DNA from: Perkinsus olseni
Lineage: Eukaryota
DNA length: 40,723 nt
Direction of reading: 5' to 3'
Assembly: GCA_013115125.1 (NCBI GenBank)
Contig: JABANN010000308.1
Coordinates: forward strand, 1-40,723
Both the position numbers and the translations under genes were made by a program. Of the stretch, positions 3,699 through 21,901 are shown piece after piece; position 1 is the first letter of the stretch, and every line of letters begins with the position of its first letter. The notes under the pieces were generated by a model, which saw only the letters and a list, made by a program, of their open reading frames with translations, did no database searches and had not been told where the DNA came from.

Positions 3699-4375
3699 AT
3701 GTGGTCCGTAAGGAGAGGGGTTAGGAGGGGCCGCGGTCGTCTATCTCTGATCTGTAGAAGAGCTTTCAGTGCCAGGCCTGTGGATCCATGGGAAGAGGTA
3801 TGCCCGCACCATCTTTTAATTGAGCTTAGGGTTGGTGGTAACGTCAGGTTGAGGCGCATCGTCCCCGCGTACCCACCTTGCATGGTTATCGACGGCCCGC
3901 TGCGGCACCACAGAATCAGACAGACATACCACGGGAGGATTTCCATAAGTTTATGAGGTTCTCTGTCCCTCCCCCTTTTATGATCTCCTGTTAGAATGTA
4001 CTGCTATTCAGGGGCCGTCCGCGAAGGTTTCCTGACGAATTAGCTCATTTCCTCTTTACGTGGGCCATTATAATCTTCATGGTTTGTAAGTACTGTGTTT
4101 GGTGACTGTCTCTCATTGAGGCTCTTAGGTTTGACAGCAGGAACGATGTACAAGCTCAGACCGGACGATTTTGATTGGATTGAGCAGGAGAGGTAGTAGT
4201 AGTGTTCGTGGTGGTGGTGGTGGCAGTGATACATGATCGTCCTGTATGGTATAGATCGAAGGCAGAGGCAGCCAAGGCCCGTCTTGATAAACGATTGGAG
4301 GCTCAGAAGACCGCTGCCAGAGCGATACAAGAGGGGCAAGTGCTTGGTGGTACGTCGAGTACTGATGATAAGTGA
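3699..4375 (+). CDS. 155-aa predicted mitochondrial single-pass membrane protein, Coa3-like
   Basis: Five exons (3699-3797, 3848-3957, 4012-4085, 4129-4192, 4255-4375) joined by GT-AG introns give one open frame. It has an Arg-rich presequence MWSVRRGVRRGRGRLSLICRRAFS, a TM segment FLFTWAIIIFMVCLTAGTMY, then KLRPDDFDWIEQERSKAEAAKARL (coiled coil). The Coa3 assignment is inference. Confidence 0.75.
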
Positions 4376-4663
4376 AAGATAGTCTTAAACATGTTTCATC
4401 CTTTACAACATGCTTATGTTGGTGTTAAAGGCTCAATCGGGTACGGGTAATAATGATCCGGCAAGCGCTCGCGGAGTACGGCTCACAATTACATTCATCA
4501 AATACTGCCCCCCCCACACAACACCATTGTGGTGGCTGTAAGTTTATGAAAACTACTAGAGAGCGTCACCATCACCTCCCTCTTCTCGATCCAGTGCGCT
4601 GGTCTCCCTTTCTCTGAGATATCTAACAGGGAGGATAGTCTGGTGGTACTCCTCTTGTTCTGA

Positions 4664-5111
4664 TCAGTACTCGGCAATATCGTTCTGTAATTGGAATATC
4701 CTCTGCATCCTTTTATCTTCAGCAGAGGGATCTCGATGTACCTTAGCATGATGTCACCTGCCGCCAAGAGCAGTTCGTTTGGCTTCCCACCTTCATGCTT
4801 AGGACCTCACCTACTACGAGCTGATCTGGCAAGAGTGATAGGGGTAGCTCCACTGATTGATGATCATACCTACACACGAATCATGGACAGCCAGCTGTGA
4901 GTTTATGCTACGTTATAAGCGTTGCAATGCCGTCCTCAAGATCGACTCGACCAACGAAGAATCGATTCTTAGCTGAAGGGGATGTGTGGCGACAGAGAGG
5001 AGCTTGACAATACCCACCTTGCATCGATACGAATGGGAGGTCGTCATCAGCACTAGCGTCTATAGTTGACTGAGCCGGAGATGTCCTTATGATTGAACTC
5101 GATATGGACAT
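4664..5111 (-). CDS. About 103-aa protein consisting of a single Chs5-N/DUF3006-like domain
   Basis: Exons 5111-5018, 4972-4912, 4869-4791 and 4741-4664 (GT-AG introns of 45, 42 and 49 nt) give ...MQAKNRFFVGRVDLEDGIATLITYDHQSVELPLSLLPDQLVVGEVLSMKVHRDPSAEDKRMQRIFQLQNDIAEY*. The start codon is uncertain. Confidence 0.72.
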
Positions 5112-5221
5112 GAGGAGATCGCTTACCAAAGCATTCTCTGCTAAATCATGATATAACAAAAACACAACCTCAAGTTGGTAGGTAATTTTACACATGATTT
5201 AAGAGATATCACGTACATGAC

Positions 5222-6322
5222 TTAGCCGACCACACCGTCATCATCCATGCCCCCATCCACACCCATTCTCTTCATCGGTGTATCATCTTCTCTCCTCTCC
5301 TCGGCATGCAACCAGCACACCATCAGAGACGCCGGTAGACACCAGTGCATCACGCCAGTGGTATTGGTATCAGAGGAATCATGCTGCTGCTGTTCACTGT
5401 CTTCTCGAGCAGGTGGAGGGGATGATGATGATGCGGGAATCATGATCGATCTGACGGACTACTGACCATTAGCTATCGTATGGCGATGTCGAGGAGGCTA
5501 CCGTGGATCCAGAAGTCCCTCATCGATCCTGTTGAGTACACGTGTAGTTAGTGTACGGAATACTTCCTGTACACCTTCGCCTGTAGCTGCTGAAGTCTCC
5601 ATGAACAATACTGAGTTCTCCTGGGCAAAGCGGCTCGCTTCAAGGAAGGATACCTACCACTCATTCGGAAGATACCACTGGAAGCATTGCCGACCTCCCG
5701 TTGATCAGGCCCTAAGTCTTTCTTATTCCCTAATATCACCACCGACAAGTCATCTTGACCTGTCTGATTGCGGGCATCTTGGAGCCATCCTGGTAGATGA
5801 TTGTAGCTCTCTCTTGATGTTATATCATACAATAGTACTACACCTGCTGCCCCTCTATAATAGCTCCTAGTTACAGTACGGTACCTGCAGCAGCGGCGGC
5901 AGCAGCAGCTGTTTCAGAGGAGTCTGTACGAGTCCTTCACCGAGAAGTAACCCACAATCTTGCCATATATTCATGGCGCTCGTTTATTACCGTTGTTGGC
6001 CCGCTGTATCCCATATTTGAAGCTTAACTCTCTTGCTGTTGACCTTAATGACTTTGCTAGCGAATTCAACACCGATAGTGTGTTCGGATTCGTCGCTGAA
6101 TACCCCTTCAAGGAACTGTCTTATTATGCATGACTTCCCTGATCCAGCATCCCCTATAATGATGATCTTCAATCTAATATCGTATTCATGATCTCTCTGT
6201 CTTGGTTGCCCTCCCATTGGAGTAGAGAGTGAAGCAGCGGCCATCGCCATCTGGGAGGGCTCACTCAATGTCATAGATGTTGATGATGTTATTGAGGTAT
6301 CCAAGGTAGCATGCCTCATCAA
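5222..6322 (-). CDS. RAB4: Rab4-family small GTPase, multi-exon; start and C-terminus uncertain
   Basis: [10 protein letters not shown]-loop; [40 protein letters not shown]; and the Rab4-diagnostic [14 protein letters not shown]...ETSA...[12 protein letters not shown]. Confidence 0.85.
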
Positions 6323-6472
6323 AAGGGAGAAGAACGACTGTTAGGCTGTTACCTACTAACTCGATGCCCCACGCTGATTCACCGATTCAAAACTGCTACT
6401 AATACTGTGATATCAGAAACCAGCATGATGAAACACGATAATGGCACGAGGCATGGGCCGGCGCTCCTGTCG

Positions 6473-18621: not shown

Positions 18622-18650
18622 AGTTTTTTAATCCCAACGTTAGAGTGAGC

Positions 18651-20103
18651 ATGGTACCTACTAGTCCCTCAATGAAGGCCTCCCCTTCGGCCGATTGTGT
18701 ACAAGGCTCGAAGAAGTCCAACTTTAAAGGGAATACTCGCGGCAAGACGACTACACTTGGAGCCATGGCCAATCTGGTTATGATATGTATTGGTGTTGGG
18801 ATACTTGGCCTACCTCTTGTTATGCAACAGGCTGGCTGGATCGGAGGTTATATCCTATTAGTAGTCGCTGGTGCATCATCCTTATGGATGGGAAAGCATC
18901 TTGCTGATGCATGCAGTACCTATTCATCATCAGATTCCTGTGGTAACCCTGTATTCCCTTCCTATCAGTCCCTGGGGTACATGACATACGGTTTTATCGG
19001 TAAAGCATCCGTTATTGTGACTATGGATATCTTCATGCTTGGCCTTTGTGTTATACTATTAGTATTATTCGCTGATAATACTCTAAGAATATGGCCAGTA
19101 TTGAATCGTAGCAGCTGGATCCTAATCTATTCTGGTATCATGATACCGCTAGTATGGATAAGGTCGATGAAGCTGATAGCATGGCTGTCGATAGGTGGTG
19201 TTGTATCGGTATTTGCGACTGTTGCTGTGGTACTCGTAGCGGGTTTTAGTAGGATGGCCAATCGAGGCTCGGATGATACTATAACACACTCGTTATTCAA
19301 CTACTCTGACTTGGGCGCTGCTTTTGGTACCCTCATGACATCGTTCGGTCTGACTGCTATGATACCTTCGGTAATGAACAATATGGAGAAGCCTGACAAA
19401 GTTGGCACTTCACTCTATGGTGCTTTCGCTATTATATTTTCAGTTTACATTTGCCTCACTGTAGCGGGCTACGGCGGGTTTGGTAATTCTATTGCTCAGT
19501 ATGGTGATATCGTCAGTGCTATATCTGGTACTACCACATCTACTCTCAATGATCAGGGTTATGCCATAATAATATGCATCCTTATACTCTGTGCCTCCCA
19601 TTTCCTGGCACTCTTCTGTCCAGTTGCCACTGACTGCGAGAAGCTTATTCCACCAAAGGCGCCCAAAATCACAGCTTATGTCGTCCGGACCGCACTAGTT
19701 GGGATATGTGCCTTCTTCGCTACTGTTGTACCAGGTGTAACCGATATGATATCCTTGCTTGGATCAGTGTGTGGTATGCCTAATGTAAGCTTTGGCCGTC
19801 ATTCTTGCTGCCAGTTCCTTCTGCTCGCCCTACTATGGACCTGCTGTCACTTCCCCATTCCTCAGGTAATGTTGCTGCCTTTATTGTTTTATTGGAAGGC
19901 CTGCCTCGTCGACGTCCATGGTATAAGAGGGATCTACAGAGGCCGCATCGTGAAGTTCATAGCAGAACTTCTCATCTGTGCACTATCGCTGTTCACCTTT
20001 GGCTATGGATTGTAAGTGCTCCACTCACCTCCTGCTGCTGCTGTTGCGGTACCTCCCTCATCACAGGTACGGTTCAATCCTGAACATAGCGAGTAGCAAG
20101 TGA
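18651..20103 (+). CDS. Amino-acid transporter (AAAP/Aa_trans family), copy 1
   Basis: GAMANLVMICIGVGILGLPLVMQQAGWIGG; SYQSLG..YG; MEKPDK; GYGGFG; multiple TM segments. Exons 18651-19784, 19866-20011 and 20067-20103. Confidence 0.93.
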
Positions 20104-21623
20104 ACTGTTAGAGTGGACTTGTAGAACTATTATGAGTATTGAGTGATACCTCAGCAACGGAGCATGATAGGCCTGTAGGCTTCAGCTCACTTTTCCGCTT
20201 CAAGCGTTCTGCGCACCTCTCCATAGAATAGATGACGAACAGGAAACTGCCGATTTATTGTCAAGAGCAGCTCTGCCATGCGTCGATGGGCTGCAGTCCC
20301 CGACAGTGATATGATAGCCGCTCACCAGCGGAGCGGTGTCCTCTGTTATCTCATCGTCATTGGTCTTCTCGACCTTTGACACAATTGTCACATTCACTTT
20401 TTTTTCGGATTCATCTTTCCACTCCGACCGAGTATCAACTTTTCTGTTCCGCGTCCGTTGGCTTGCGCTTCACGTGAGTAGGGAGATCATCACTGATGAG
20501 TCATTCGCCATATCGCAGGAGTCCCTATGTAGCCTTTCTGCTTCTACTTCTCTCACAATCTCCTATGGGACTCGGCAGCGGGTCCGCGGTGTCCAGCAAG
20601 CTATCCATCTTCGGAGCAACAGCTAATCTAGTTATGACGTCCATTGGTGTTGGTATACTTGGCCTTCCTCAAGTTATGGAACAAGCTGGTTGGGTAGGCG
20701 GTTATATCCTCTTAGCGATCGCAGCTCTTGCATCACTCTGGATGACGAGGCACTTGACTGATGCATGCATAAGATACTCCAAGAACGGGGAGTATCCATC
20801 ATACCAGCAGCTAGGGGAACTCACTTATGGTCGATGGGGCCGTGCAGCGGTTATTGTCAGTACCGATATCTTCATGCTGGGTCTTTGTGTTATCCTATTG
20901 GTACTATTTGCTGATAATACCATGCGAATGTGGCCTGTTATGAATCAGACTGATTGGGTCCTTGTGTACGCTGGCCTTATGGTGCCTTTCGTTTGTATCC
21001 GATCCATGAAGCTCATCAGTTGGCTATCGATGGTCGGGGTCGTCTCTGTTCTCGCTACTGTCATCGTTATTGTCATTGCAGGATTCTCTAGATTGGTTGA
21101 ATATATTGGGACGATTGATTACTCTCTATTTAGCTTCAACCAGCTGGGAAGTGCTATCGGTACCCTCATGACATCGTTCGGTCTGACTGCTATGATACCT
21201 TCGGTAATGAACAATATGGAGAAGCCTGACAAAGTTGGCACTTCACTCTATGGTGCTTTCGCTATTATATTCTCAGTTTATATTTGCCTCACTGTAGCGG
21301 GCTACGGCGGGTTTGGTAATTCTATTGCTCAGTATGGTGATATCGTCAGTGCTATATCTGGTACTACCACATCTACTCTCAATGATCAGGGTTATGCAAT
21401 AATAATATGCATCCTTATACTCTGTGCCTCCCATTTCCTGGCACTCTTCTGTCCAGTTGCCACTGACTGCGAGAAGCTTATTCCACCAAAGGCGCCCAAA
21501 ATCACAGCTTATGTCGTCCGGACCGCACTAGTTGGGATATGTGCCTTCTTCGCTACTGTTATACCCGGTGTAACCGATATGATATCCTTGCTTGGATCAG
21601 TGTGTGGTATGCCTAATGTAAGC
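19326..21623 (+). repeat. 465-nt near-identical direct repeat (19326-19790 and 21159-21623) inside the two transporter genes
   Basis: Aligned by eye without gaps; I count 5 substitutions. Confidence 0.92.
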
Positions 21624-21901
21624 ACTTCACTCGTGATAGGCTCGGCATTACTCTAGTCTCCGCTCAGGTCATGCTCCTACCTCTACTGTTCTATTGGAAG
21701 GCCTGCATCATTGACGTCGAAGGAGTACACGGCATCTATCGGGGGAGACCTTTCAAGTTCGCCGGAGAGCTCTTCATCATAGCTTTGTCGCTCTTCACCT
21801 TCGGATATGGACTGTGAGCTCTAATTGCCCTTTCATGTCGGTTCAGAGGCCCATTCTCCTCCAGATACGGTTCCATCTCGAGCATGATAAACTCACGGTA
21901 A
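20496..21901 (+). CDS. Amino-acid transporter (AAAP/Aa_trans family), copy 2
   Basis: Tandem paralogue with the same two intron positions; ANLVMTSIGVGILGLPQVMEQAGWVGG; ends GLYGSISSMINSR*. The start may instead be ATG 20565. Confidence 0.93.

Follow-up and report, generated by a model that had tools for sequence, protein, structure and literature searches.

What do the ChAPs of protists bind, and where did exomer come from? Chs5, the exomer core (yeast Chs5p and S. pombe Cfr1; PF16892; PDB 4IN3, 4WJW, and 4Q66), is held to be fungal, whereas ChAP proteins are found more widely. The first-pass annotation of the DNA analyzed here had noted both points, and both are stated in the accessible part of a eukaryote-wide survey (PMC6057913). 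That part of the survey reports no credible and no full-length Chs5 outside fungi, on the basis of a 1e-40 BLAST cut-off followed by HMMER with reverse BLAST; a 70-residue match would be expected to miss the BLAST cut-off. ChAP is placed there in ciliates, Toxoplasma, Neospora, Bigelowiella, Guillardia, and dictyostelids, as well as in Entamoeba, Trichomonas, algae, and choanoflagellates, and is given as "not found" in Chromera, Vitrella, and most of the apicomplexans sampled, with Perkinsus outside Table S1. For a protist ChAP without Chs5, the same text considers "an analogous subunit" or Arf alone as the partner, and for the origin of exomer it offers "no clear hypothesis."

The locus examined here raises the possibility of a homologous partner. 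It lies on the minus strand of a 40,723-nucleotide contig of the oyster parasite Perkinsus olseni (JABANN010000308.1; the window below means this whole stretch) and had been proposed to encode a stand-alone protein resembling the N-terminal domain of Chs5 and prokaryotic DUF3006. In the literature searched, which leaves most subscription papers (those on the main exomer structures included) outside it, we found no report of a non-fungal Chs5, no paper describing stand-alone protist CHS5_N proteins, and no mention of DUF3006.

Structure and expression of the gene

The peptide quoted in the first-pass annotation is present on the minus strand of the window, and on the genomic frame three further residues follow its end before a TGA at 4666-4664. 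Candidate GT-AG junctions are compatible with two models, one with four exons and 103 aa that ends at this TGA, the other with five exons and 123 aa that ends at a TAG at 4558-4556. Transcript contigs were taken from 4 of 21 listed runs, one recorded as RNA and three guessed to be RNA, and are read as evidence of presence only. All four introns are absent from the contigs in each of the four runs, which come from four studies. Since contigs with the four joints occur in every run, the five-exon model is the expressed form, and the Chs5-like gene is real and yields a separate, spliced mRNA. The four-exon model is ruled out by the intron-4 joint 4622-4671, seen in all four runs. Of the "four clean exons" followed by a stop that had been claimed, introns 1 to 3 are confirmed by the contigs as implied, but the gene has an additional intron 4 and exon 5; the TGA taken for the stop lies inside intron 4 (4670-4623) and is skipped in 4/4 runs. 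The features are as follows.

5500..6200 (approximate), minus strand: Rab4-like gene, the upstream neighbor and not part of the protein (Pfam Ras hits; name Rab-4A of P0001, the P. chesapeaki model)
5138..5139, minus strand: probable trans-splice acceptor AG and 5' end of the mature mRNA (X1 and X2 contigs start at 5139)
5018..5111, minus strand: exon 1, which holds the ATG at 5111 and encodes an N-terminal extension (residues 1-31) rich in Ser, Thr, and Asp (contigs)
4973..5017, minus strand: intron 1, 45 nt, GT-AG, in frame and stop-free (joint 4972-5018, 4/4 runs)
4912..4972, minus strand: exon 2, encoding the first two strands of the Chs5-N domain (contigs, structure model)
4870..4911, minus strand: intron 2, 42 nt, GT-AG (4/4 runs)
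4791..4869, minus strand: exon 3, encoding strand 3 and the beginning of strand 4, with the conserved P..LLP and G (contigs)
4742..4790, minus strand: intron 3, 49 nt, GT-AG (4/4 runs)
4671..4741, minus strand: exon 4, the end of strand 4 and a long helix, aligned with yeast Chs5 helix residues ~55-73 (contigs, alignments)
4623..4670, minus strand: intron 4, 48 nt, GT-AG, containing the TGA at 4666-4664 (joint 4622-4671, 4/4 runs)
4556..4622, minus strand: exon 5, a short acidic tail and the stop TAG at 4558-4556 (contigs)
4672..4967, minus strand: domain with the Chs5-N/DUF3006 fold, residues ~34-102, four strands (OB-like barrel) and a helix (searches with the orthologue, profiles with the window protein)

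The contigs start at 5139 (X1 and X2), 5131 (X3), and 5068 (X6). Those of X1 and X2 open with four extra letters, and in X1 these letters plus the genomic AG read CTCAAG, the letters in which the Perkinsus spliced leader ends at its 3' side, as given in the part of PMC3101222 consulted. The presumed start is the ATG at 5111, the earliest in-frame ATG from which the spliced frame is open. At the other end, the spliced frame halts at 4556, only 21 residues past the helix, and the contigs terminate at 4538-4571; FN3 and BRCT domains are absent after the core. A convergent plus-strand transcript with its poly(A) at 4405 leaves no room for an FN3-BRCT module beyond the gene. The description of the protein as stand-alone, lacking FN3-BRCT, is thus upheld.

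The position directly downstream of Rab4 is likewise correct: a Ras-family gene lies immediately upstream on the same strand, and the corresponding P. chesapeaki gene bears the name Rab-4A. The order of Rab4 followed by the small gene is the same in the two species. In the public P. chesapeaki model (P0001, KAF4668608.1, "Rab-4A"), the Rab domain is joined to the Chs5-N domain, and the Perkinsus protein might on this account form the C-terminal portion of a fusion with Rab4. We regard this as extremely unlikely, because the spliced contigs of all four runs start at or below 5139 with none joined to Rab4, the end of the spliced leader is present at 5139 in X1, and P0001 has nothing corresponding to exons 1 and 5 of the gene in the window (comparison over 5181-6340 and 4556-5111 of the window). 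For the species of the window, a fusion is largely refuted by the transcript contigs, and the joined P0001 model probably stems from two annotations having been merged, with the small gene hidden as a result. The adjacency to Rab4 need not reflect a functional link, since two ciliate-like contigs place the gene between C2-domain and LRR genes.

Several features of the neighborhood are recorded here as separate observations. The Rab4 region is covered by a single unspliced contig (X1); at 5500-5230 on the minus strand, the Rab4-like gene has no obvious C-terminal cysteine prenylation motif in three frames, and no spliced contigs occur there. At about 4000-4405 on the plus strand, a small gene with spliced, polyadenylated transcripts converges on the Chs5-N gene and is present in 4/4 runs. 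At 18624-20015 and 20478-21656 lie two tandem, nearly intron-free genes, which we take to resemble amino-acid transporters; their second halves are near-identical, which suggests recent duplication or gene conversion.

Relationship to fungal Chs5 and bacterial DUF3006

The closest match to the window protein is the P. chesapeaki orthologue P0001, and remote searches were made with its residues 220-289 as a stand-in, which is 92% identical to the window protein over 71 columns (93% over the exon 3 match); the spliced protein of the window itself received profile scores only. The exon 3 open frame alone matches CHS5_N (E 0.018). In Pfam, the orthologue exceeds the DUF3006 cut-off (PF11213; 36.5 bits, cut-off 32.3) and falls short of that for CHS5_N (30.1 bits, E 4.4e-7, cut-off 39.8), such that the profile check proposed in the first-pass annotation succeeds for the former family and not for the latter. 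NCBIfam returned no family for the domain. A PDB sequence search with the 70-aa orthologue gave yeast Chs5 as the top three of six matches (E 3.8e-5 to 5.7e-4).

The AF2 model of the domain has four strands and a helix at pLDDT 90, the same barrel and helix as in fungal Chs5 (rmsd about 2.4 Å, with 28-29% identity over 67-68 aligned residues). Exomer Chs5 chains occupy Foldseek ranks 1-6 (best E 9e-5, TM 0.72), and VIA gives Chs5 Z scores of 8.2 (4q66_A; rmsd 2.5, 68 aligned) and 7.6, followed by the unrelated HypC at 6.8, a modest margin of 1.4. In the Atlas structure search, a bacterial DUF3006 cluster comes first (TM 0.80) and Chs5 clusters follow (0.63-0.66), and the link to DUF3006 that had been noted thus holds in both Pfam and structure. 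For P0001, nothing usable came from the Atlas feature search; leads for P0018 were all below 0.9 and all bacterial DUF3006. After exomer, the nearest solved folds are the hydrogenase chaperone HypC/HupF and then OB/cold-shock domains, and the Chs5 core therefore resembles a small OB-type barrel with a helix.

Profile scores separate the two families. With a eukaryote profile from which the Perkinsus row was omitted, the window protein scores 82 bits, fungal-type rows 61-84 bits, and bacterial rows 1-18 and 3-29 bits; the maximum over 1000 shuffles plus the reversed sequence is 5.2 bits (758 received any score), and the similarity is not due to chance. The rows of this profile had been picked by likeness to the Perkinsus protein, and a second profile was therefore built from only the four FN3-bearing Chs5 proteins: the window protein scores 62.2 bits, 18 stand-alone rows 32.9-71.2 bits, and 35 bacterial rows at most 21.5 bits. 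A DUF3006 profile of the 35 bacterial rows gives the window protein 23.5 bits. Conversely, when the profile is built from 14 FN3-less rows, its match to yeast Chs5 extends ungapped across 67 residues (E 2e-20).

The bacterial rows were drawn from 17 GTDB loci (16 from Bacillota) and 24 loci of the phylum Myxococcota, where 21 of 151 genomes matched; an alignment search (A2) matched none of four bacterial genomes known to carry DUF3006. Trees separate 22 eukaryote-type from 35 bacterial rows (tree 1; 57 rows, 81 columns; split 99/98) and 21 from 23 (tree 2; 44 rows; split 100/100), each resting on 81-84 columns, on eukaryote rows picked for their likeness to the Perkinsus protein, and on bacteria from two phyla only. 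Tree 1 left out partial sequences (P0005, P0007, P0016, L011, L038, and L039), near-duplicates (L006, L018, and L020), the low-scoring L044, and near-copies (P0025-P0040, P0042-P0046, and P0048-P0050); for tree 2, 13 further long or redundant rows were dropped. In AU tests, placement of the Perkinsus protein with Myxococcota (p 0.007) or Bacillota (p 0.002) is rejected, whereas neither its placement as the deepest eukaryote-type branch (p 0.44) nor a single clade of stand-alone rows (p 0.35) is. Full-length Chs5 rows form one group (98/89 and 100/98) that is drawn within the stand-alone rows in both trees, and full-length Chs5 may, on the drawn topology, have arisen from inside the small forms.

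Residues of the helix follow the same division. E86 is found in 4/4 full-length Chs5 and 18/18 stand-alone rows, with T in 30/35 bacteria; Q97 is found in 4/4 and 17/18 rows, with R in 17 and M in 11 of the 35 bacteria; and R81 is common to full-length and small forms, not to bacteria. The bacterial D-R motif (D in 33/35) is absent from the Perkinsus protein, which reads V-G-R. Although the Perkinsus protein, through its orthologue, passes the DUF3006 cut-off and shares the lone ~70-aa domain and predicted fold of that family, it groups apart from the prokaryotic members of the two phyla sampled. Together, profile scores, trees, and AU rejections support one eukaryote-type family with Chs5, within the sampled rows.

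Our results demonstrate that the protein is homologous to yeast Chs5 residues 1-77 and is closer to them than to the sampled bacterial DUF3006; sequence, fold, and tree all bear out the claimed homology to the Chs5 N-terminal core. The protein does not count as a canonical Chs5, since FN3-BRCT is absent and the CHS5_N cut-off of Pfam is missed. It differs from the fungal proteins also in lacking the long C-terminal tail, in its short N-terminal extension, in belonging to an alveolate, and in that its ChAP partner is putative.

Small relatives are found in other protists. A phmmer search of 1.84 billion representatives returned 24 matches: P0001, two repeat-driven false matches that were dropped (P0002 and P0021), four proteins with FN3 (two named, from Rhizopus and the chytrid Boothiomyces; the other two are P0014 and P0023), two fungal-type fragments, and 15 proteins without FN3 or BRCT, of which P0016 and P0017 may be partial. 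Among the 15 stand-alone forms, one is species named, from the ciliate Pseudomicrothorax dubius (P0009), and others come from MMETSP (P0012) and EukProt (P0006 and P0024). They share with the Perkinsus protein the same domain without FN3-BRCT, which lies at or near the C terminus in 14/15, but differ in N-terminal extensions of 0-294 aa. Some exceed the CHS5_N cut-off of 39.8 (P0003, 44.4; P0008, 45.8; P0010, 50.6), and automatic Pfam labels already tag some of these proteins as CHS5_N, so the fact itself sits in databases. The closest tree neighbors of the Perkinsus protein (100/96) are P0013, P0015, and P0039, of 82-84 aa, from ENA contigs, which Pfam barely detects. Two AT-rich genomic contigs carry complete, intron-free stand-alone copies amid kinase and B-box/kelch genes, and we read both as eukaryotic, probably from ciliates. 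In these contigs (L045:158-4258, with copy P0041/L045, and L046:2541-6644), which are intron-poor and use the standard code, the order of C2-domain gene, Chs5-N gene, and LRR/coiled-coil gene is kept. In the EukProt protein P0024, whose gene prefix is presumably that of a unicellular relative of animals, CHS5_N stands first and is followed by a 340-aa acidic tail without FN3 or BRCT; it lies beside the full-length group in tree 1 (91/66) and may represent an intermediate architecture.

The named taxonomic breadth of the family is thin, and an alignment search returned 14 proteins. A word-indexed search for short relatives of P0001 residues 219-289 gave none among two candidates, the P0015 locus was not found among 352 candidates, and viral contigs yielded none from 66 candidates.

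Predicted dimer, proposed ChAP partnership, and alternative readings

The first-pass annotation had noted that the Chs5 N-terminal domain dimerizes. For the Perkinsus protein, this is supported as a predicted homodimer only: the two-copy model scores 0.37 against 0.02 for the best control. The mark that it passes is reached by 21/30 microbial pairs and 0/23 single chains, and by 17/29 eukaryotic pairs and 0/30 single chains; among eukaryotic pairs without an older solved relative, however, only 1/7 passed, and the pass may therefore reflect solved exomer structures memorized by the predictor. At least 67% of contacts are shared between runs, with partner pLDDT of at least 66. In the model, which did not use the alignment, strand 41-52 pairs antiparallel with its counterpart, and the helix lies outside the interface.

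In yeast, Chs5(1-77) suffices for dimerizing and ChAP binding but is "not fully functional," according to the accessible text of PMC4207043; Chs5 is bound by TPR1-4 of the ChAP (PMC3496614, in the part consulted), and ChAPs bind Arf directly (PMC6057913, likewise). We favor, as fairly probable, the reading that the Perkinsus gene encodes a minimal Chs5, an exomer core without FN3-BRCT that would act as a 2:2 adaptor with a putative ChAP. As predicted, two copies would pair via the fourth strand and leave their C-terminal helices free; with each helix docked onto one ChAP through its TPR region, the assembly would be 2:2. In this way the dimer would link two ChAPs into a bivalent adaptor for cargo and membrane at the late Golgi. 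The FN3-BRCT module is the Arf1-binding part of Chs5 itself. Because it is absent here, Arf1 and membrane contact would have to be supplied by the ChAPs alone, and fungi would have added FN3-BRCT to a pre-existing scaffold. The helix residues held in common with fungal Chs5 and not with bacteria suggest that the binding face has been kept.

An alternative, which we consider unlikely yet deserving of weight, is that the protein is a true eukaryotic relative of Chs5-N that serves as a small, ChAP-free dimerizing adaptor for some other partner, in Perkinsus or in protists generally. ChAP has a patchy distribution and was not found in several alveolates in the accessible part of PMC6057913; the terms ChAP and Chs5 gave no matches in the supplements of PMC13623125 (10 files) and PMC2868825 (2 files) or in those of PMC4501334 besides files 13-16, though all of these supplements may omit domain names. 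The bacterial relatives, moreover, adjoin a different gene: a ComEC/Rec2-type gene lies near the DUF3006 gene in 34/41 loci from two phyla (e.g., L001:2180-3225 and L003-L044). The domain can thus serve another partner, and by analogy DUF3006, if it dimerizes like Chs5-N, may be a scaffold for the ComEC/Rec2-type enzyme. Against a ChAP-free role stand the shared helix residues and the ciliates, which have both families, ChAP (PMC6057913, Table S1, in the part consulted) and the stand-alone form (P0009), albeit in different species.

The direction of change could also be reversed, with FN3-BRCT ancestral and lost in protists; the small form would then be derived rather than a proto-exomer, and could still bind ChAP. 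A single stand-alone clade is compatible with the AU test, and the FN3-bearing P0014 and P0023 might be non-fungal. This reading is nevertheless quite improbable to us, given that the bacterial outgroup is likewise a lone domain, that both trees place the full-length rows as a single group among the stand-alone ones, and that no full-length Chs5 beyond fungi is reported in the consulted part of PMC6057913. Still less probable is an independent transfer of a DUF3006 gene from bacteria to Perkinsus, with the likeness to Chs5 a matter of shared fold only. The Pfam score for DUF3006, above its cut-off and above CHS5_N, the TM of 0.80 to the bacterial Atlas cluster, the AU result for a deepest-branching Perkinsus protein, and the unassigned organism of the nearest rows P0013 and P0015 all fit such a transfer; yet neither a bacterial name nor the D-R motif occurs among the 24 nearest proteins, profile scores and the AU rejections oppose it, and the gene has four spliceosomal introns. 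The proto-exomer reading of the Perkinsus protein stands as likely but unproven.

Implications for the origin of exomer

We put forward more tentatively, as a reading that we hold possible without giving it preference, that the last common ancestor of eukaryotes had a two-subunit exomer, composed of a dimer of a ~70-residue Chs5 core and two ChAPs, which would survive in alveolates and other protists; its core would derive from prokaryotic DUF3006, and fungi would have added only FN3-BRCT. The protein described here is a candidate answer to the question of what protist ChAPs bind, namely a minimal Chs5 in alveolates that is homologous rather than analogous, and DUF3006, as the prokaryotic relative of the core, is a candidate answer to that of exomer origin. 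If true, an exomer in the last eukaryotic common ancestor names the missing partner of protist ChAPs and gives exomer a prokaryotic root. Since only the addition of FN3-BRCT would then be fungal, there is also a consequence for the proposal that fungi could dispense with AP-4 once Chs5 had arrived. The occurrence of small Chs5 cores in Perkinsus, in ciliates, and in other protists suggests a stripped-down, ancestral form of this sorting complex.
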